A stretch of DNA of 7,842 nt. Source: a virus (taxonomy: Duplodnaviria; Heunggongvirae; Uroviricota; Caudoviricetes). The stretch lies in the IMG/VR virus record IMGVR_UViG_2541047931_000013, one strand, 5' to 3'. The translations under genes and the position numbers were made by a program. Under the pieces are notes generated by a model. That model saw only the letters and a list, made by a program, of their open reading frames with translations, had not been told where the DNA came from and ran no database searches. Below are positions 1-7,748 of the stretch, in pieces (the first letter of the stretch is position 1; each line of letters begins with the position of its first letter).

Positions 1-651
1 GTGAACAACATCTTGAGAAAATCGCCAATCGAACGGCTTTGTTCATCTGTATCGATTACCCCTCATGAAATGGCTGTGGCCTTGGCTGGCCTAAACCCAT
101 CTATGCGCATTAGCGATGTGCCTGAGGAAAATTTCGAATATGTCGATTTTGTCAGAACTCATCTTGCCAGAGCTATCAAGGTGTACAGAGGTGAAAAAAC
201 TAGTAAAGACGAGCCTTGCCATGCCCTTGATATTTTCTTAGCTTCTTACCCATTTATTGACACAAATACACCAGAAATAATTGTTCAGAAAATATCAGAA
301 GCGATTGATGATTTGCGTGGCACCAAGGGCTGGGAAGAAAAAGCCCGAAACCTTGGAGGACTCCAGTTAGTAAACTACATCAAAGAAACCAACCGCAGCG
401 GACGTGGGCAGCATAGAAAGCAGGATGAGGAAAACGGGACAATGAAAATGATGGGGTTGATAGTACATCTGCTGATAAAAAAATCAGGCTCATCTTCCTA
501 CATCCAAAATGGGAAACCTAATCGCACAGCTATATACCGTGACATAGAAACCTTAATCAAGGATGAAGGGATATCCCATAAAGGAATAGCAAAAGCCACA
601 TTCCTAGAAAAAATCTCACGGGCTTTATTAGCTGTCCACGATCTCGACTAA
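1..651 (+). CDS. hypothetical protein, low-GC cargo gene; 5' end probably lies outside the window
   Basis: ORF open from base 1 (GTG) to TAA at 649-651. Sample 60-nt lines hand-count at roughly 30-40% GC versus about 55-63% in the helicase gene. No family recognised by eye. The position upstream of alpA matches the variable cargo slot of integrative islands. Confidence 0.5.
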   Translation: MNNILRKSPIERLCSSVSITPHEMAVALAGLNPSMRISDVPEENFEYVDFVRTHLARAIKVYRGEKTSKDEPCHALDIFLASYPFIDTNTPEIIVQKISEAIDDLRGTKGWEEKARNLGGLQLVNYIKETNRSGRGQHRKQDEENGTMKMMGLIVHLLIKKSGSSSYIQNGKPNRTAIYRDIETLIKDEGISHKGIAKATFLEKISRALLAVHDLD

Positions 652-1123
652 TCACTTTTCACGCCCCTCCAAAGCAATGGCGGGGCATTACCTGTTTACC
701 CATCTCCACCAGCATAGATAATTCTATGCCTAGCCATTGCTATATCTGTTCGGCTTAGTTCATCTGTAATCACCCCATCTCTAAAAGATACGCCAGCTAT
801 CATTAGCCATTTTAAGCCATCATGAGCCATTATAAACCGACTCAACCAATTGAATAATAAAAGATAAAAGGAAATGTAAAAACATGATGAATGACGATGA
901 AAGATATAACTCTTTGATAAAACAATGATTTTTTTAAACTGGTAACTAATTGAAAATAAAGAAAATAATTATCCCACCTGCATTTGCAATCTTTCAGTGG
1001 ATCGGTATTTTTTCAATAGATTTATAATTTCTTTCAATAGATTCTAGTCTTAATAGAAATACTGTATGGGCAACCACTAAACTTTAAGTAACTTCATGAG
1101 CTATCAGAGAGGTTACTAGAGAT
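652..1123. promoter_or_regulatory. AT-rich non-coding control region upstream of the alpA-like gene
   Basis: About 470 bp with no convincing ORF. Four AGC(C/T)AT repeats at exact 10-bp phasing (795-800, 805-810, 815-820, 825-830). Perfect -10 hexamer TATAAT at 1023-1028, flanked by the 12-mer TTTCAATAGATT at 1011-1022 and 1032-1043. SD GAGAGG at 1107-1112 ahead of the ATG at 1124. Confidence 0.4.
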
Positions 1124-1342
1124 ATGACAGCACACAAGCCAGCATCATCAGCTATCCCAACAACTGGATACATCCGTCGCTTTCGCATGCCGGAATTGCT
1201 AGGTGTTTCACTGCCTACTATTGATAGATGGGTTAAAAATGGCACTCTTCCACGCCCAGTGAAGCTAACAGATAACGTGACTGCGTTTGATGCGGTGGAA
1301 ATTAATAACTGGCTGGCAGAACGCCGAAACACATCAGCCTGA
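1124..1342 (+). CDS. alpA: AlpA-family phage transcriptional regulator / excisionase-like (winged-helix) protein
   Basis: 72-aa product with the motif IRRFRMPELLGVSLPTIDRWVKNGTLPRPVKL...DAVEINNWLAER, typical of the AlpA/Vis family. SD AGAGGT lies 10 nt upstream. Size and position are typical for island regulators. Confidence 0.8.
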   Translation: MTAHKPASSAIPTTGYIRRFRMPELLGVSLPTIDRWVKNGTLPRPVKLTDNVTAFDAVEINNWLAERRNTSA

Positions 1343-1416
1343 TTAAATGACTACGGGGGATGACGTTCAACCCCACCAGCAAACAAAAGTAACTTAATTT
1401 AATAGCAGGTGTTTTT

Positions 1417-2115
1417 ATGAAACTGCGAAAAACGCCCGTACAGGGGCAGGGCTTCGTTCGGCCTGAAACCAGCATGAGCGATATTCTGGTTCGCCACAAA
1501 GCGGAGTCGCGCATTGATTCCCGCTTATTTGCTGAGCGTATTGGCATAAAGCACAAAAACCTTTATTCGCTCATTCAGAAGCACAAAACCGGATTGCGTG
1601 AACTGGGCATCCTTCCGTTTCAAACGGAGCGATTAAAAACCCGTCAAAACGGGGAGCGTGAACATAAGTTTGCCCTCCTGAATAGCGATCAGTTTGATTA
1701 CATGTGTCGCATTGTGCGCGGTCGTGATGATGAACGCATGAACCGCTTCAAGCTGGATGTTACGAAGGCATTCGCAAAACATCGCGCTACCGAGCCTGTA
1801 CGCCGTGAATATCTGCCAGGCTATCACGAAAGCCGTGACGGGCTTAAAGCACTGGGCGCAGAACGTCACCATTACATCAATCTGGCACGCGCAGAGAACC
1901 GTGTTACAGGTCTGGTAACTGGCGAACGAGGCACAGCCAGCGAGCAGCAGTTAGGCTTGCTGATTGTCATGCAGAAAATCGAACAGGCCGCATTTGAGGA
2001 GGCGATACAGAACGGCATGACACCTACCGAAGCAGTGCGGGAGGTTGCCCGACGCATGGAGACATTCGCCAGCCTGATGACATCTGAGCCGTATCTGGGG
2101 GTAAATCATGCTTAA
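1417..2115 (+). CDS. Rha-family phage regulatory protein (antirepressor-type)
   Basis: N-terminal IDSRLFAERIGIKHKNLYSLIQKH...EHKFALLNSDQFDYMCRIV...RFKLDVTKAFAKH fits the Rha (Phage_pRha) pattern. SD AGGTG lies 5 nt upstream of the ATG. The stop overlaps the next start (ATGCTTAA). Confidence 0.7.
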   Translation: MKLRKTPVQGQGFVRPETSMSDILVRHKAESRIDSRLFAERIGIKHKNLYSLIQKHKTGLRELGILPFQTERLKTRQNGEREHKFALLNSDQFDYMCRIVRGRDDERMNRFKLDVTKAFAKHRATEPVRREYLPGYHESRDGLKALGAERHHYINLARAENRVTGLVTGERGTASEQQLGLLIVMQKIEQAAFEEAIQNGMTPTEAVREVARRMETFASLMTSEPYLGVNHA

Positions 2116-2449
2116 GGATTTCGCCGCAATTATTCCGGTATCACCTGGCATTATTGGCGGACATGAAACAGCCATTGTCAGCGCCAGAGCGTTACATAAG
2201 GCGCTTGGTGTGAAGCGTGATTTCACTACATGGATTAAAGGGCGTATTGATCAGTACGGATTTAAAAATGGCGTGGATTTTGAGTTTGTAGAAAATTTGA
2301 CCTCCCCCAATCCGGTGAGCGCAAAATCTCGCCAACGTGTAGAGCACGACTACCTGAGTACCATCAACATGGCGAAAGAACTTGCGATGGTCGAGCGTAC
2401 CGAACAGGGCCGCGCTATTCGTCAGTACTTCATCAAATGCGAGGAGTAG
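2108..2449 (+). CDS. AntA/AntB-type antirepressor, N-terminal domain only (ends at an in-frame TAG)
   Basis: ARALHKALGVKRDFTTWIKGRIDQYGFKNGVDFEF ... MAKELAMVERTEQGRAIRQYFIKCEE matches the AntA domain. SD GGGGG lies 6 nt upstream. The frame continues into ORF 2468-2851 after a single TAG. Confidence 0.7.
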   Translation: MLKDFAAIIPVSPGIIGGHETAIVSARALHKALGVKRDFTTWIKGRIDQYGFKNGVDFEFVENLTSPNPVSAKSRQRVEHDYLSTINMAKELAMVERTEQGRAIRQYFIKCEE

Positions 2450-2467
2450 CTACACAAAGTAGCGCCA

Positions 2468-2851
2468 GTGCGTTCCGCAGCGTTACGCCGTGAACTGAAA
2501 GCCCGTATCACCGTTGCCAGCTACTTTAAGCCGATGTGTGCCGCGCTGGAGGCGTACCGCGCTGAACTGGGTAAAAACACGCTCCAGCACCACTACACCA
2601 CGGAAGCCAATATGCTGGCGCGTATCGTGCTGGGTGGCATGAATGCAAAACAGTGGGCGCAGGCGAACGGCATCACAGGCGAACCACGCGACCACATGAG
2701 CACGCTGCAGCTTGAGCACCTTTCTTACCTTGAGCAGAGCAATATCACGCTGATTGAGTTAGGCCAGGACTACCACCAGCGGAAAGCTGAATTAATTCGT
2801 CTTTCGCAACGCTGGTTAGCCCGCCGCATGGAGGTGAGCAGCCATGCGTAA
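2468..2851 (+). CDS. antirepressor C-terminal-domain protein; probably the C-terminal half of the AntA-like gene split by an amber codon
   Basis: Same reading frame as 2108-2449 (2468 minus 2108 = 360). EANMLARIVLGGMNAKQWAQANGI...RDHMSTLQLEHLSYLEQSNITLIELGQ resembles the C-terminal region shared by phage antirepressors. Own start is a GTG with no SD at proper spacing. Confidence 0.5.
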   Translation: MRSAALRRELKARITVASYFKPMCAALEAYRAELGKNTLQHHYTTEANMLARIVLGGMNAKQWAQANGITGEPRDHMSTLQLEHLSYLEQSNITLIELGQDYHQRKAELIRLSQRWLARRMEVSSHA

Positions 2852-3401
2852 ACCTGTCTTTTATGCCGGTCGCACTGAAATCTCTGTCATTAAATTCGAT
2901 GACATTCAGGTGCGCATAGTGAGTATCAACGGCGAGCCGTGGTTTGTTGGCGCTGATGTGTGTGCCGCGCTGGAAATCAGCAATGTTACTGATGCCGTTT
3001 CAGTTCTGGATAACGATGAGGTAATGACCCTAGCTTTAACCGAGGGTCATTCCGGTAAGCGTGGTGGTGCCAGAAGCTGGAATGTTGTCTCTGAATCAGG
3101 TTTCTACAAACTGATCGCCCGCAGCCGTAAAGCTTCCACACCAGGCACATTTGCGCACCGTTTCAGTAACTGGGTATTCCGCGAGGTGATTCCTTCAATC
3201 CGCAAAACGGGGGGTTATGGTGTTCCGTTTGCCATGCTGAATGATTTCAGTAAACGTCAGGCTGCATATCAACAGGAAGCCAGCAAACGCGGTTACAGGT
3301 TACAGCAATGCAAAGAGGCAAAAGATGCACTGGAACGAGAAGAGCGGGCGCTATGGCGTAAATATCAGCCTGATTTTCTGGAGGGTGAAAGCAATGTGTA
3401 A
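2844..3401 (+). CDS. Bro-N domain protein (phage antirepressor-like)
   Basis: VIKFDDIQVRIVSINGEPWFVGADVCAALEI...FYKLIARSRKASTPGTFAHRFSNWVFREVIPSIRKTGGY is the Bro-N signature. SD GGAGGTG lies 7 nt upstream. The ATG overlaps the previous stop. Confidence 0.75.
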   Translation: MRKPVFYAGRTEISVIKFDDIQVRIVSINGEPWFVGADVCAALEISNVTDAVSVLDNDEVMTLALTEGHSGKRGGARSWNVVSESGFYKLIARSRKASTPGTFAHRFSNWVFREVIPSIRKTGGYGVPFAMLNDFSKRQAAYQQEASKRGYRLQQCKEAKDALEREERALWRKYQPDFLEGESNV

Positions 3402-4431
3402 CGATCCGAACGTTACAGAAAGAAAAAGCGCCCCGTTGCTGGATAACAGGCAAAACAAAGGCGACCGGGATAGGTCGCCAGTGGGAACAAAGGAAATCAA
3501 ACGCATCGCCAACAATGCCAGATTTGCGGCTGGTGGGCAATGTGATCAGTGTGCTGGCTTGCTGGTGGGCTATTCCTGCTCTTTAGCATCGCCATACTGC
3601 GATGTTTTCCAGGTATGCGATTCCATTTTTGTGCGCCTGTACTCTTTTAAGAACTTCTCAAGGACAAACGCACATGGCGCAAATCTTTCCTGTTCTTGTT
3701 CGCTTACCGCATTTTTGCGTTGTTTTTTCCTGGATGAGGATAATTTCTTTAATGATTTGTCAGTCATCGTAGATACCTGTAACCCTGTGCGCCACAGTTC
3801 ACCGCACCACGGCGCTGGTGATGGTTACTCCTGCTCTTTGGCCTTCCGGCGCTGTTCATATTTTAATTTGCGTCCACAGGCATCTAAGACCCATGCGGAA
3901 AAATTAGCACTAGGATTAGTTAATTTTTCTTGTTCAACACTGGCATCAATCCCATCTATAAGCTCGTGCGGGAATCGAATATTTTTCTTTGCTGATTTGT
4001 TGTTTGTGTTTCCGCTAGACATTGGTACACCTCACTTAAATGGATTTGATGGGCGCACACAATACAGCAAAAAAAGTGAGAAGTTAAGTATTGACATGTG
4101 CGCACACATGATTTTAATCTGTGCGCACAGTTTGGGTTGCATTGCTCAAATTAAGCAACGCCCCGCAGTGCTCGCAACACATGCAGGGCGTCTAACCACC
4201 AACGATAGAAAGCGTATCGAGGTAGCTATGTTAAATCATACCACACACCCGCAAGGGCGGGACTCGCACAACCTGAATAAATACATCTGGCGTTTTATCG
4301 CCCTGAGCACCGCACAACCACGCGTAATACACATCGAGGCCGCCAGCGAACAGGAAGCCCGTCAGCAATCCCCGGCTGGCTGCGTGATGGTATTTACTGC
4401 CCGCATCCGTCAGGGGGAATACTATGCGTGA
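3394..4431 (+). CDS. alternative model: long + strand ORF (345 aa), possibly a shadow of - strand genes; mutually exclusive with the - strand small ORFs and with the 4228 start
   Basis: ATG at 3394 with SD GGAGGG 8 nt upstream, overlapping the Bro-N stop (ATGTGTAA). Frame open for 345 codons. The product is about 5% Cys and F/S/L-rich in its middle part, which looks like antisense translation of K/E/A-rich coding. Confidence 0.25.
   Translation: MCNDPNVTERKSAPLLDNRQNKGDRDRSPVGTKEIKRIANNARFAAGGQCDQCAGLLVGYSCSLASPYCDVFQVCDSIFVRLYSFKNFSRTNAHGANLSCSCSLTAFLRCFFLDEDNFFNDLSVIVDTCNPVRHSSPHHGAGDGYSCSLAFRRCSYFNLRPQASKTHAEKLALGLVNFSCSTLASIPSISSCGNRIFFFADLLFVFPLDIGTPHLNGFDGRTQYSKKSEKLSIDMCAHMILICAHSLGCIAQIKQRPAVLATHAGRLTTNDRKRIEVAMLNHTTHPQGRDSHNLNKYIWRFIALSTAQPRVIHIEAASEQEARQQSPAGCVMVFTARIRQGEYYA
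3445..3479 (-). terminator. putative Rho-independent terminator for - strand transcripts
   Basis: Perfect 7-bp GC-rich stem GGCGACC (3460-3466) / GGTCGCC (3473-3479) with 6-nt loop. On the - strand it is followed by UUUGUUUUG. No T-tract on the + strand side. Confidence 0.4.
3570..3767 (-). CDS. small basic protein (65 aa), paralog B of a tandemly duplicated pair; possible DNA-binding protein
   Basis: ATG at 3767-3765 with AGGT 7 nt upstream. C-terminal AKEQE shared with the 3825-4022 product. An interrupted inverted repeat CTGTG-CGC-CACAG (3785-3797) lies just upstream. Confidence 0.35.
   Translation of the reverse strand: MTDKSLKKLSSSRKKQRKNAVSEQEQERFAPCAFVLEKFLKEYRRTKMESHTWKTSQYGDAKEQE
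3825..4022 (-). CDS. small protein (65 aa), paralog A; putative ribbon-helix-helix-like repressor divergent from the replication operon
   Basis: ATG at 4022-4020 with GAGGTG SD 5 nt upstream. KNIRFPHELIDGID...NFSAWVLDACGRKL has a strand-helix-helix layout resembling CopG/Arc-type proteins. Candidate -10 TATTGT / -35 TTAACT on the - strand at 4059-4064 / 4082-4087. Confidence 0.4.
   Translation of the reverse strand: MSSGNTNNKSAKKNIRFPHELIDGIDASVEQEKLTNPSANFSAWVLDACGRKLKYEQRRKAKEQE
4053..4130. promoter_or_regulatory. back-to-back divergent sigma70-like promoters overlapped by palindromic operator-like sites
   Basis: + strand: -35 TTGACA (4091-4096), 16-bp spacer, -10 TTTAAT (4113-4118). Perfect palindromes TGTGCGCACA (4097-4106, in the spacer) and CTGTGCGCACAG (4119-4130, over the predicted start). 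Half-site GCGCACA at 4053-4059 overlaps the predicted - strand start. Confidence 0.5.
4228..4431 (+). CDS. small protein (67 aa), first gene of the replication operon; possibly Icd-like (unverified recollection)
   Basis: ATG at 4228 with SD GAGGT 4 nt upstream. Product MLNHTTHPQGRDSHNLNKYIWRFIALSTAQPRVIHIEAASEQEARQQ... has ordinary composition. Its stop overlaps the next start. About 100 nt downstream of the predicted + promoter. Confidence 0.45.
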   Translation: MLNHTTHPQGRDSHNLNKYIWRFIALSTAQPRVIHIEAASEQEARQQSPAGCVMVFTARIRQGEYYA

Positions 4432-4681
4432 TGAACGATTTATTCTTCTGGAGCAAAAATTCAGTGAAGCGCCAAAAAATGAAATTGATGCTCTTTTGCA
4501 TATCGCGAATATGCTAAAAGTAGCAACGTTCCTTATAGTTTCGAATCTGGAGCATGAAACGGCGTTAGATATACTGAACAGTGCTGTCGATTATTCTGAA
4601 TATATTGCCGAGGATAAATACAGGCAATTACCAGATTTGTTAGCCCATAAATATAAAGAAGAACCTCACACCGGGAAATAA
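4424..4681 (+). CDS. hypothetical protein (85 aa), low-GC
   Basis: ATG at 4424 with SD AGGGGG 6 nt upstream, overlapping the upstream stop. Sample lines hand-count at roughly 35-38% GC. No family recognised. Confidence 0.55.
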   Translation: MRDERFILLEQKFSEAPKNEIDALLHIANMLKVATFLIVSNLEHETALDILNSAVDYSEYIAEDKYRQLPDLLAHKYKEEPHTGK

Positions 4682-4683
4682 AC

Positions 4684-4986
4684 ATGAAGAAGATTAAATT
4701 TACTGGCTTAAATGCCAGCGGACAGACTCACCCGAAAATCAGGATCGGGGATATTTTCCGGGATAAATATGGTGACAGCGTGGTTATTAATTCCGTGTAT
4801 GAACGGCACATTACATACCGCCGCGCAGGGTACGACTATGACTGTGTGATGCCCGTTCATCAGTTCCGGCGTGATTTTTCACTGGTATGTGCAGCACCAC
4901 GCAGTAAGCCCACCAGTAAAGAGAAAGCACGGGCAAATATTCAGGTAATAAAGAACATGATTAACGCATTCAGGGGCAAGAAATGA
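4684..4986 (+). CDS. hypothetical protein (100 aa), low-GC; possibly DUF4222-like (unverified)
   Basis: ATG 2 nt after the upstream stop; weak SD GGGAA. Its stop overlaps the helicase start (ATGA). IGDIFRDKYGDSVVINSVYERHITYRRAGYDYDCVMPVHQFRRDF is vaguely familiar from small proteins next to island primase genes. Confidence 0.55.
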   Translation: MKKIKFTGLNASGQTHPKIRIGDIFRDKYGDSVVINSVYERHITYRRAGYDYDCVMPVHQFRRDFSLVCAAPRSKPTSKEKARANIQVIKNMINAFRGKK

Positions 4987-7109
4987 AACGCGCACCGAAT
5001 TTAAAGCACCAGCCGAAAGACAAAATGACGGAGGTGATTATCTTTGCGGGTAGTGATGCCTGGGCACATGCGAAAGAGTGGAGCGAATGGGCCGGAAAGC
5101 ATATTGCGGCAGATGATACACATCCAGTTATTCTTGGACCGGAACAACTGGCGAGTCTGGCAGACACGCAAATCATCGACAAAGGGCGCTATTACGTGCG
5201 CGTTTATCGTGCTGGTGAAATATCAGAGCAGCACCTTACACAGATAGCGACACTGCTTGCAGTGGCGGGTGTGAAGGAGGCGCGTTGCTACCGCAGCTTT
5301 GTTGATCAGCAGCCGGAGGACTGGACACCGCGCATGGCTGGACTGAAGGATGATGCGGAACGCGGTAACAGTCTGGTGATCAACCTTCCGGCGAAGACAA
5401 ATTTCACCGGAAATTATGATGACGAATTAAAGCCTCGTGTTGAAAGTCGCGTCGATGGTGTTTTCTGGGTAACGCCCAAAGTGGACAAGCAGTCAGGCGA
5501 AATTATCCGGCCTGAGACGTGGTTATGTTCTCCGCTTGAACTACTGGGAACAGGAACAATCGGCAAAGAGCATTACCGCGTGATGCGCTGGAAAAAACCA
5601 GCAAACCATGAGGTCATTACAATGGCGGTCCCGTGCGGAGGCATTGGTGACCGTGACGGCTGGCGGTTGCTGAAAGACCACGGCCTTAACGTGACGACCA
5701 ACGGCAAATACAGGGCTATCTTGGCTGACTGGATGCAGTTAAGCGGAAACCATGAGGAATGGCAGTTAAGCACAACAACGGGGTGGCATTTTGGTGCGTA
5801 CATCATGCCGGATGGTTCGATCATCGGTGAATCAGAGAAACCCATCCTGTTTACCGGAAAAACTGCCGCTGTTAATGGCTATTCCGTGGCGGGAACAGCG
5901 GAGGGCTGGCGCGATACCGTGGCACGGCTGGCTGGTGGTAATCCGTCCATGATGCTGGGTGTGGCGGTATCGCTATCTGCACCATTAATCGGGCTGGTGG
6001 GTGCTGACGGCTTCGGGGTTCATCTTTTTGAGCAATCATCAGCAGGTAAAACCACCACACAGAACATTGCATCAAGTTTATGGGGAGAGCCGGACGCGCA
6101 ACGGCTGACCTGGTACGGAACGGCGTTAGGTATCGCCAACGAGGCCGAAGCACATAATGACGGGCTGTTACCCCTGGATGAAATAGGCCAGGCCGGAAAC
6201 GCACGGGAGGTGTCCACGTCAGCCTATACGCTGTTTAACGGTTCCGGGAAATTACAGGGGGCGAAGGACGGCGGCAACAGGGAGATAAAACACTGGCGTA
6301 CGGTGGCAATCAGCACCGGAGAAATGGACGTTGAAACATTCCTCAAAACGGAAGGGATAAAAATTAAAGCGGGACAGCTTGTCCGTCTGCTTAACGTACC
6401 GATGGAAAAGGCCTCGCAGTTTCACGAATACAGCACCGGAAAGGCGCACGCAGACGCGTTAAAAGATGCCTGGACAGAAAATCACGGGGCGGCAGGTCGT
6501 GAGTGGGTTAAATGGCTGGCAGGCCACCAGCAGGAGGCAAAGGACGCGGTAAGGGCATGTCGCGAGCGGTGGCGCAACCTGATACCGGAGAGCTACGGCG
6601 AGCAGGTTCACCGTGTGGGGGAAAGATTCGCCGTACTGGAGGCCGCGCTTGTGCTTTCCGGTCATGTTACAGGCTGGGATGTTCAGGCGTGCCGTGATGC
6701 AGTTCAGCATAACTTTAATGCCTGGGTGAAGGAATTCGGCACGGGCAACAGGGAATTTAAACAGATGGTTGAACAGGCTGAGGCGTTTTTGTCGTCGTTC
6801 GGGTTCAGTCGATACCTTCCCTATCCAAACAGCGACGAGCGTGATTTACCGATTAAAGACCTTGCCGGATACAGAAAGGGGAGTATCAGAAACGAAGATG
6901 ACGAGTTCCGTTTTTACACGTTCCCGCATGTGTTTGAGGGTGAGATAGCACAGGGATTTAATCCGTCTCACTTTGCCCGCGCGTTGAGTGCAGCCGGAAT
7001 GCTGGAAGCGGGAGGCGACCGCCGTTACAAGAAAAAGGCGCTCGGCAGGATTGGCGGGAAGCAGCATATTTTTTACGTGCTGATGTTCCAGCCTGAAGCA
7101 GAAGATTAA
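4983..7109 (+). CDS. replication primase/helicase-like protein (P4 alpha-like / DUF927-type, SF3-type P-loop NTPase)
   Basis: 708-aa ORF at about 55-63% GC. Walker A-like FEQSSAGKTT (about 6021-6059) and Walker B-like LLPLDEIGQ (about 6160-6190). SD AGGGG lies 6 nt upstream. Overall resemblance to replication proteins of enterobacterial integrative elements. Confidence 0.85.
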   Translation: MKRAPNLKHQPKDKMTEVIIFAGSDAWAHAKEWSEWAGKHIAADDTHPVILGPEQLASLADTQIIDKGRYYVRVYRAGEISEQHLTQIATLLAVAGVKEARCYRSFVDQQPEDWTPRMAGLKDDAERGNSLVINLPAKTNFTGNYDDELKPRVESRVDGVFWVTPKVDKQSGEIIRPETWLCSPLELLGTGTIGKEHYRVMRWKKPANHEVITMAVPCGGIGDRDGWRLLKDHGLNVTTNGKYRAILADWMQLSGNHEEWQLSTTTGWHFGAYIMPDGSIIGESEKPILFTGKTAAVNGYSVAGTAEGWRDTVARLAGGNPSMMLGVAVSLSAPLIGLVGADGFGVHLFEQSSAGKTTTQNIASSLWGEPDAQRLTWYGTALGIANEAEAHNDGLLPLDEIGQAGNAREVSTSAYTLFNGSGKLQGAKDGGNREIKHWRTVAISTGEMDVETFLKTEGIKIKAGQLVRLLNVPMEKASQFHEYSTGKAHADALKDAWTENHGAAGREWVKWLAGHQQEAKDAVRACRERWRNLIPESYGEQVHRVGERFAVLEAALVLSGHVTGWDVQACRDAVQHNFNAWVKEFGTGNREFKQMVEQAEAFLSSFGFSRYLPYPNSDERDLPIKDLAGYRKGSIRNEDDEFRFYTFPHVFEGEIAQGFNPSHFARALSAAGMLEAGGDRRYKKKALGRIGGKQHIFYVLMFQPEAED

Positions 7110-7132
7110 CTTCCCTGTGTGAGGTAAAAAGT

Positions 7133-7257
7133 TGCGGGTTATGCGGGTTATCCTGTGCATAAGTTAATTAACTGAATGATTAAAAAGGAAATTAATAACC
7201 CGCACGTAACCCGCAAAACGGCAGTTATAACCCGCAAATGTGCGATTGTAACCCGCA
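7133..7257. repeat. iteron array around an AT-rich core; putative replication origin
   Basis: 9-mer TGCGGGTTA twice in tandem (7133-7141, 7142-7150). Its reverse complement TAACCCGCA four times (7196-7204, 7207-7215, 7228-7236, 7249-7257; spacings 11, 21, 21 bp). The AT-rich stretch 7151-7195 between the two sets contains the palindrome GTTAATTAAC. Confidence 0.55.
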
Positions 7258-7319
7258 AAATTTCACTGTAAGAGTGTAAACAAGCGTAACTATCACGTTA
7301 AAACCGGAGAACAAACAGC

Positions 7320-7748
7320 ATGACGGCGCAAATATCAGCTTACGGGCGGCTGGTGGCTGACCCGCAGTTAAAGACCACCAGCAAGGGCACACAAATGGCG
7401 ATGGCGAGTATGGCGGTCCCCCTTCCATGCAATCAGACAGATGACGGAACGGCGACGATGTGGTTATCCGTCCTGGCGTTTGGCAGACAGGCTGACGCAC
7501 TGGCAAAACACCACAAAGGCGAACTGGTGAGCGTGGCCGGTAACATGCAGGTGAGCCGGTGGACGGGCCAGAACGGCGAAACGAGGCAGGGATGGCAGGT
7601 TATCGCAGACAGCGTAATCAGTGCGCGAACGGCGCGACCGGGCGGCAAAAAAGGCCAGCAGGGGCAGGCTACTGATGCACTGAACAGGGCAAAGCAACAG
7701 ACAGGCCAGCACGATGATCTGAACCGCCCCGGGAATCCTGGAGACTAA
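7320..7748 (+). CDS. SSB-like (OB-fold single-stranded DNA-binding) protein, 3' end disrupted by IS insertion; native sequence ends at 7719
   Basis: AYGRLVADPQLKTTSKGTQMAMASMAV...WLSVLAFGRQADALAKHHKGELVSVAGNMQVSRWTGQNGETRQGWQV matches the SSB OB-fold pattern. SD GGAGA lies 9 nt upstream. From codon 134 the ORF reads into the IS inverted repeat and stops at 7746-7748. Confidence 0.7.
   Translation: MTAQISAYGRLVADPQLKTTSKGTQMAMASMAVPLPCNQTDDGTATMWLSVLAFGRQADALAKHHKGELVSVAGNMQVSRWTGQNGETRQGWQVIADSVISARTARPGGKKGQQGQATDALNRAKQQTGQHDDLNRPGNPGD

Follow-up and report, generated by a model that had tools for sequence, protein, structure and literature searches.

In the staphylococcal SaPIs, iteron sets around an AT-rich centre form the replication origin, which directly follows the 3' end of rep and is recognised by a C-terminal winged helix (PMC9371898). 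For Gram-negative phage-inducible chromosomal islands (PICIs), two iteron sets that flank an AT-rich region immediately 3' of pri-rep have been described (Fillol-Salom 2018, PMC6092414), and a pri-ori fragment of one such island, EcCICFT073, supports plasmid maintenance (PMC6092414); the position of the origin downstream of pri was restated in later work (PMC10111431). EcCIEDL933, a capsid-forming PICI (cf-PICI), was reported to be excised, replicated, and packaged upon induction by a helper phage (10.1101/2022.09.08.507074). The cf-PICI paper makes no mention of an origin or of iterons, and the 9-mer with which the present work is concerned is absent from the text and supplements of Fillol-Salom 2018, Fig. 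2a of which might still draw an origin of the TAACCCGCA type. A literature search for the 9-mer in an origin context, or for DUF927-type origins in enterobacteria, found no description.

Iteron plasmids such as pSC101, F, P1, R6K and RK2 place direct initiator sites, phased with the helix, beside an AT-rich unwinding element and a DnaA box, and their Rep proteins are WH-WH initiators that recruit the host DnaB. Unlike in these plasmids, the initiator of the locus described here appears from its sequence to be a helicase itself, and its sites form inverted sets.

We analyzed a stretch of 7,842 nucleotides, referred to here as the window, in which an earlier note had proposed a PICI-type origin for the adjacent helicase gene at positions 7133 to 7257. 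This proposal is supported, because the Rep protein is homologous to initiators of staphylococcal islands, the layout is conserved in 22 of 22 relatives, the C-terminal domain (CTD) of Rep covaries with the iterons, and this domain is predicted to form a winged helix that resembles the one of SaPIbov1 Rep. As to the extent of the candidate, there are two iteron modules, one of which lies outside the window. We regard 7133-7257 as the probable place at which Rep binds iterons and DNA melts in the origin of the island itself, namely, the rep-proximal module of the two, here referred to as module A. It counts against this assignment that the only tested Gram-negative PICI origin, that of EcCICFT073, uses a helicase of a different family (D5_N/Pox_D5). 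The origin layout has already been published for Gram-negative PICIs, and the classification of the origin described here as a Rep-iteron origin of the PICI/SaPI type is well supported; the optional splitting of the modules, the matched specificities of CTD and iteron, and the DnaA box appear to be undescribed until now, and the quantised arm spacing of 54 or 64 bp is counted among the new points.

The island and its replication genes

The window represents the left part of an E. coli island of the Gram-negative PICI type. Positions 1 to 7700 are 99.5% identical to an island of approximately 20 kb between yicC and dinD in ExPEC/APEC strains, the intact gene order of which is int, a hypothetical gene, an alpA-like HTH gene, Rha, AntA, Bro-N, Icd-like, DUF4222, DUF927, ssb, ProQ/FinO, PerC, and three large genes; this island type has no capsid genes and no packaging genes. 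The replication region recurs in ETEC1749 as part of an island at tRNA-Gly. The unidirectional int-alpA-...-pri/rep-ori arrangement at a specific att site, as in Gram-negative PICIs, was thus found at two places (yicC/dinD in ExPEC XM and tRNA-Gly in ETEC1749). Diverged copies of the module, with 86 to 93% DNA identity, reside in three kinds of element: cf-PICIs of the EcCIEDL933 type, located between roxA and phoQ in O157:H7, the iterons of which are identical to those of the window; PICIs embedded in a prophage terL gene; and a degraded PICI that keeps a prohead protease/capsid fusion gene and no other packaging genes. Among 5,426 complete E. coli genomes, approximately 785 have a match to part of 6900-7420, and 132 of these to most of it; a megablast search with rep and the origin against a phage collection gave no match. 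The genes of the replication module in the window are as follows.

4983-7109, plus strand: rep, encoding a 708-aa DUF927 (MCM-like AAA+) initiator-helicase (Pfam DUF927, 1e-46)
6702-7106, plus strand: part of rep coding for residues 574-708, the predicted winged-helix origin-binding domain (predicted fold)
7320-7748, plus strand: ssb of the replication module (Pfam SSB), with its 3' end replaced by an IS3-family insertion from approximately 7700

The match to intact islands stops at 7700, where the IS3-family element has inserted (orfA from 7775), and the tip of the SSB protein is changed from ...DDPYGDGIPF to ...HDDLNRPGNPGD. Because the insertion replaces the conserved C-terminal tip, the SSB of this island copy probably cannot dock partner proteins. 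Further upstream, the 396-aa mechanical open reading frame at 3241-4431 does not represent a single gene; the Icd-like cell-division inhibitor annotated in intact islands accounts for no more than its last ~67 codons, and relatives have an annotated YlcI/YnfO-family gene on the other strand of this stretch.

The iteron array and its AT-rich core

The earlier note had described inverted sets of 9-bp iterons, two in tandem and four more, on either side of a 45-bp AT-rich stretch. The coordinates given below confirm this exactly.

7115-7132, no strand assigned: leader motif CTGTGTGAGGT followed by an A-run, between the rep stop codon and the first iteron, conserved in relatives
7133-7141, plus strand: iteron L1, TGCGGGTTA, exact match
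7142-7150, plus strand: iteron L2, TGCGGGTTA, abutting L1, exact match
7151-7195, no strand assigned: AT-rich core, presumed DNA-unwinding region, 24% GC, low duplex stability
7154-7162, minus strand: DnaA-box consensus TTATGCACA (TTATNCACA), the only exact consensus match in the whole window
7196-7204, minus strand: iteron R1 (TAACCCGCA on the plus strand), exact match
7207-7215, minus strand: iteron R2, exact match
7228-7236, minus strand: iteron R3, exact match
7249-7257, minus strand: iteron R4, exact match

The array thus begins 23 bp past the stop codon of the 708-aa gene and consists of six perfect copies of TGCGGGTTA/TAACCCGCA, two of which abut each other and are followed by the 45-bp core and the four inverted copies. 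From start to start, the copies are separated by 9 bp, by a 54-bp gap, and then by 11, 21, and 21 bp, which agrees with the earlier description of four copies about one or two helical turns apart. The unit is 9 bp long, and weak preferences stretch it to 10 to 11 bp. With at most one mismatch allowed, the window holds 7 matches when 1.97 are expected, a number that was reached in 0 of 200 dinucleotide-preserving shuffles. In the 35.7-kb locus L025, which contains the intact island copy, 11 exact copies were found when 0.27 are expected, and all of them fall into two clusters. The seventh, one-mismatch copy of the window, at 7358-7366 inside ssb, was rejected as a site; it reflects coding sequence, because it is also kept in L006, an element that uses a different iteron.

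The layout was compared across 22 relatives, comprising E. coli variants from annotated genomes, 12 loci from other species or genera (E. albertii, Winslowiella, Cedecea, Rahnella, Pantoea, Citrobacter, Pectobacterium, Tenebrionibacter, Apirhabdus, and an uncultured Enterobacteriaceae bacterium), and 5 loci obtained via protein hits. In all 22, which represent about a dozen enterobacterial genera, an abutting pair, an AT-rich spacer, and a spaced inverted array follow directly after rep. The first iteron lies 22 to 30 bp past the rep stop codon in every relative except L020, where a different module comes first, and 16 of the 22 have exactly four array copies at 11/21/21 bp. While the sequence of the core diverges, the arm-to-arm distance that it sets (start to start, from the second left to the first right iteron) is held at 53 to 54 or at 64 bp, values that are one helical turn apart. 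The 9-mer itself differs by lineage, with at least eight sequences among the relatives: TAACCCGCA, TAACCCAC(A/T), TGAACCACG, TGAACCAAC, TGAACCGAC, TGGGA(C/T)AAG, TGAGGCAAC, and TGAGACAAC; the origin of E. albertii has iterons of the TGGGACAAG type. The earlier note had asked for the conservation of the 9-mer in related elements, and in comparisons of the window with four diverged relatives that share TAACCCGCA, 0 mismatches were found in the 54 iteron columns compared to 14 to 24 in the other 98 columns of 7110-7262 (Fisher p 2e-3 to 1e-5). The sites are conserved while their flanks drift and all copies change in concert, as would be expected of sites at which one protein binds.

These data also bear on the idea that the repeats arose by chance, are what is left of decayed repeat DNA, or mark a packaging (cos/pac) or recombination site with no part in replication; this idea can practically be dismissed. 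Satellites do carry cos or pac and att sites, and nothing more specific speaks for such an origin of the repeats. The shuffles, by contrast, never reproduced the count, the sites are perfectly conserved while the flanks diverge, and the layout is kept across genera with changed sequence and in a position tied to the rep stop codon. Moreover, the array is also present in an island type that is devoid of any packaging genes.

With 24% GC compared to 49% for the whole window, the core at 7151-7195 is the presumed unwinding region. The 30-bp stretch from 7169 has a duplex stability of -30.5 kcal/mol, which is ~2.8 SD below the window mean of -41.0 (SD 3.8), although it ranks only fourth among the least stable duplexes of the window. 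The DnaA box is located four bases past the left iteron pair, at the edge of the core. It has the same position in all origins of the TAACCCGCA type, including a perfect TTATCCACA in L004 despite a diverged spacer, matches the consensus at 8 of 9 positions in two TAACCCACT-type origins, and is absent from origins with other iteron types; a lineage-specific role for the host DnaA is therefore plausible. The palindrome GTTAATTAAC, to which the earlier note had drawn attention, is present in the core at 7163-7172, but relatives do not share it, and it was discarded as a functional element. A potential IHF site (WATCAANNNNTTR) matches at 12 of 13 positions at 7169-7181 and has similar counterparts in approximately 10 of the 22 origins; in AT-rich DNA, this is unconvincing, and the candidate was discarded.

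Outside the array, a yryGTGwGAG motif plus an A/T run, similar to the leader of the window, is found in nearly all 22 loci whatever the iteron type. A TTTTCTGGCTGGC motif that follows module A is conserved in five non-E. coli loci (L006, L010, L012, L014, and L017), independently of iteron type. An Rfam scan of the window found no RNA family, so that no known structured RNA accounts for the repeats. The first 65 nt of ssb contain a Chi sequence, GCTGGTGG, at 7349-7356 on the plus strand and an inverted copy at 7375-7382 on the complement, 18 nt apart; the pair may simply reflect the ssb coding sequence (RLVA / TTS), which is conserved in relatives.

Rep and the domain that tracks the iterons

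In a phmmer search against the PDB, Rep matched 8tch (SaPIbov1 Rep) with an E value of 2e-14 over residues 214-603 and 5dgk (Cch) with 9e-4, and a Foldseek search with a model of the full-length protein matched SCCmec Cch (5e-8). Based on the DUF927 domain, these sequence matches, and the match to the Cch fold, Rep is a homologue of the self-loading initiator-helicases of staphylococcal islands (SaPIbov1 Rep and SCCmec Cch). The earlier note had referred to a rep/primase and helicase gene; the initiator-helicase part of this description is borne out by homology, while "primase" is a database label (PHROG 1139) that comes with no demonstrated primase signature. No Pfam hit to D5_N or Pox_D5 was obtained for this Rep. 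For the N-terminal ~140 residues, there was no Pfam match, and Foldseek with the full-length model returned nothing on this domain.

The full-length AlphaFold2 model, built with 42 close homologues, was poor (pLDDT 59.6, with values of less than 50 for the ATPase and the CTD) owing to a shallow alignment. When residues 574-708 were modelled with 53 more diverse sequences, a pLDDT of 78 and a pTM of 0.70 were obtained. This model starts with two long helices, which are followed by a strand, two further helices, and a beta-hairpin, with the predicted winged helix comprising a helix at approximately residues 661-670 and a beta-hairpin wing at approximately residues 683-702. The best structural match of the predicted winged helix is SaPIbov1 Rep. 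An HMM profile of the CTD searched against PDB sequences gave only chance hits and reached no solved winged helix, and the Pfam family HTH_56 ("Cch helix turn helix") scored below threshold on the CTD, at an E value of 0.018. Since neither search gave a significant match, the homology of the CTD rests on the comparison of folds, and its assignment as a winged helix is a prediction of moderate confidence.

Which part of Rep tracks the iteron type was assessed with 20 full-length Rep proteins. In a Mantel test of iteron Hamming distance against protein distance, residues 621-708 gave an r of 0.79 (p 0.0002), compared to an r of 0.06 (p 0.22) for residues 1-140 and 0.20 (p 0.02) for the ATPase. 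Identity in the CTD separates pairs with the same iteron from pairs with different iterons with an AUC of 0.995, and the best-covarying stretch, residues 660-700 (AUC 0.998), spans the second helix and the wing. The E. albertii Rep illustrates this well, being 96% identical to the window Rep over residues 141-570 and only 33 to 34% identical over 621-708, and its 9-mer is unrelated. Conversely, Rep proteins that share TAACCCGCA are only 42 to 63% identical over the N-terminal 140 residues, and one with a 91%-identical N-domain uses TGAGGCAAC. When the iteron was predicted from the CTD cluster before the DNA was read, 3 of 3 predictions were correct, and two novel CTDs had novel iterons. The earlier note had proposed to look for iteron binding, by EMSA, in the N-terminal domain, and the correlations given above point away from this domain and to the CTD.

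The sequence coding for the CTD and module A are only 23 bp apart, and linkage could explain part of the covariation. Three observations argue against this: the distant second module carries the same 9-mer, ssb does not covary although it starts 63 bp past the last iteron, and a concerted change of 6 to 11 dispersed copies needs selection. As judged by covariation, then, the determinant of iteron specificity is the CTD of Rep, that is, its last ~90 residues. It is very likely that the 9-mers are binding sites for this domain and that they belong to the origin of the island.

None of the DUF4222, Icd-like, and SSB proteins tracks the iteron type. This is relevant to another explanation, which the earlier note had named as the one that could overturn its proposal, namely, that the repeats serve as the operator or promoter of ssb, located downstream, and that the protein binding them is a regulator distinct from Rep. 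The repeats do lie in the 210-bp gap upstream of ssb, and a weak promoter-like match was found on the minus strand at 7272-7245. However, no sigma-70-like promoter was found on the plus strand in the interval from rep to ssb or, with both modules scanned, in the corresponding regions of the relatives. The repeats follow rep whatever is located downstream, be it ssb, a small ORF, Fic, a capsid-protease gene, or nothing, and in approximately 650 E. coli genomes the 5' end of ssb has a match while the region that precedes it here has none. Furthermore, iteron type tracks the CTD of Rep, and SSB identity does not follow the iteron: an element whose iteron differs has an SSB with 88% identity, and one that shares the iteron has an SSB with 75% identity. 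With the promoter lacking, the downstream gene varying, and the other proteins of the module failing to track the 9-mer, we consider regulation of ssb a highly improbable function of the repeats. Scans for terminators, in the origin of the window and in the two modules of the relatives, found nothing on the coding strand.

The locus therefore resembles SaPI origins in that it has a homologous initiator, lies immediately downstream of rep, and has at least two opposed iterons on each side of an AT-rich centre; a C-terminal winged helix as the origin reader is predicted with moderate confidence, and cognate specificity of CTD and iteron is suggested by covariation. The iterons are 9 bp long here and not penta- or hexanucleotides (5 to 6 bp) as in SaPIbov1, SaPI1, and SaPI5 (PDB 8tch), a difference of degree and not of mechanism. 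Unlike in SaPIs, the arms are asymmetric (two abutting copies versus four at 11/21/21 bp), there is a DnaA box and a second, mirror-image module that is sometimes kilobases away, the N-terminal domain of Rep is different, and the island is of an alpA-regulated type in a Gram-negative host.

With EcCICFT073, the island shares the architecture int-alpA-...-DUF4222-pri/rep-ori-ssb-perC and the position of the origin directly after pri/rep, where iteron sets surround AT-rich DNA. The initiators differ: EcCICFT073 Pri is a 584-aa protein of the D5_N/DUF5906/Pox_D5 (P4-alpha-like) type with iterons of the GTCTACC type, whereas Rep is a DUF927 protein, and only residues 1-165 can be aligned. Over these N-terminal ~165 residues (4983-5480), Rep is 42% identical to the N terminus of Pri (L019 8242-8740). 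Since the remainder of the two proteins is unrelated, the N-domain is a module common to two helicase families.

The second iteron module

Every related element has a second iteron cluster, either adjacent to module A or 2 to 11 kb away at the right end of the island. In most non-E. coli relatives and in EcCIEDL933-type elements, this module B is located 30 to 170 bp past module A and consists of 1 to 3 spaced copies (21 bp apart), a spacer of ~50 to 85 bp, and 2 to 3 abutting inverted copies, a layout that is the mirror image of module A. A GTTTTGT(A/T)TATATATA tract with 23% GC is conserved at its end. In the island type of the window, module B has three spaced sites, a spacer of ~85 bp, two abutting inverted sites, and GTTTTGTATATATATA; it is located 10.8 kb from module A at the right end of the ExPEC XM island (L025 32031-32184), and the window ends before it. 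In the ExPEC XM genome (NZ_CP025328), this module is covered by 4176480-4176760. The corresponding distances are 10.1 kb in ETEC1749, 8.2 and 7.9 kb in two terL-embedded cf-PICIs, where module B is found ~280 bp before the prophage gene resumes, and 2.2 kb in E. albertii. Second iteron clusters were located at the following positions.

L025: 32031-32184
L001: 30435-30588
L003: 17491-17645
L004: 17193-17346
L006: 7454-7483
L002: 12393-12548

A division of this kind is known from P4. The alpha protein of P4, which acts with ori and crr, is reportedly a multidomain initiator with a C-terminal winged helix that binds the origin. As in P4, there are two separate cis elements with the same short iterons here, one of them directly 3' of the initiator gene, and in intact islands and relatives the second is 8 to 11 kb away. 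According to the P4 annotation (NC_001609), crr is the element that adjoins the 3' end of the alpha gene; it opens with a pair of repeats at a distance of 9 bp, behind which inverted copies are located, and the origin proper, with the same repeats, is 4.5 kb from crr. There are also differences. Alpha is an SF3, D5-like (D5_N/Pox_D5) helicase, whereas Rep has a DUF927 domain; the P4 iterons are 8 bp long (TGTTCACC), and P4 crr is a duplicated 120-bp unit. In addition, the modules are adjacent in many relatives of the element described here, so that, unlike in P4, their separation is optional.

The existence of two modules raises the question of which one is melted. Module A could be an auxiliary Rep-binding cis element (crr-like, or acting in copy control or "handcuffing," as a roadblock, or in autoregulation), with melting and loading taking place at module B. 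A second cluster of the same iterons in every related element is consistent with this, as are the P4 precedent, in which the cluster immediately 3' of alpha is crr and the origin proper is 4.5 kb away, and the conserved tract of low GC content with which module B ends. In SaPIs, however, the Rep of which is homologous to the one described here, it is the cluster adjoining the 3' end of rep that serves as the origin, and its AT-rich centre melts (PMC9371898). The spacer of module A also has the lower GC content (24% versus 35% in module B), it has the DnaA box, and the arm distance of module A is held to whole helical turns, as for a melting unit. We consider a purely auxiliary role of module A unlikely, and it is likely that module A itself is the site of melting and loading.

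By analogy with SaPI Rep and P4 alpha, Rep would bind the iterons of module A through its winged helix once the island is induced. The four copies at 11/21/21 bp would be presented on one face of the helix, with the abutting pair 5 or 6 turns off, and Rep oligomers, as in the systems with which we compare it, would form on either side of the core, open the duplex there, and self-load as the replicative helicase, while the island SSB would coat the unwound strands. More speculatively, the host DnaA might assist via the box at 7154-7162, and the second module might act jointly with module A, as do ori and crr in P4.

It is conceivable, if somewhat doubtful, that the two modules make up a split, two-part origin, in which mirror-image halves of one Rep specificity are positioned either side by side or approximately opposite each other on the excised circle, bracketing ssb and the cargo or packaging genes. 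Rep might then loop the DNA in a P4-like manner or load one helicase per half-origin, with DnaA having been recruited in the E. coli lineage, and the CTD-iteron pairs, of which there are at least eight, could represent a swappable incompatibility cassette and a readable winged-helix code.

This work assigns a concrete origin and a DNA-binding domain to the commonest replication module of capsid-forming and helper-embedded PICIs in E. coli and enterobacteria; hundreds of E. coli genomes contain this DUF927 Rep module, and homologues number approximately 1,900. The combinations of CTD and matching 9-mer, at least eight in number, provide material for studying how winged helices read DNA, could help to predict incompatibility or cross-replication between coresident satellites, and could be a source of orthogonal replicons for delivery vectors based on PICIs. 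That the two modules can lie apart would matter when islands are trimmed to a minimal replicon.

Two further observations concern individual loci. In L013 and L017 (Pantoea rodasii and Apirhabdus), the rep frame is interrupted, with 130 to 176 open codons before the stop, and full iteron sets are retained. In L025, three large co-oriented genes (844, 687, and 919 aa; 23342-30689) are located where cf-PICIs carry their capsid and packaging genes, and these may constitute a cargo or defence module.
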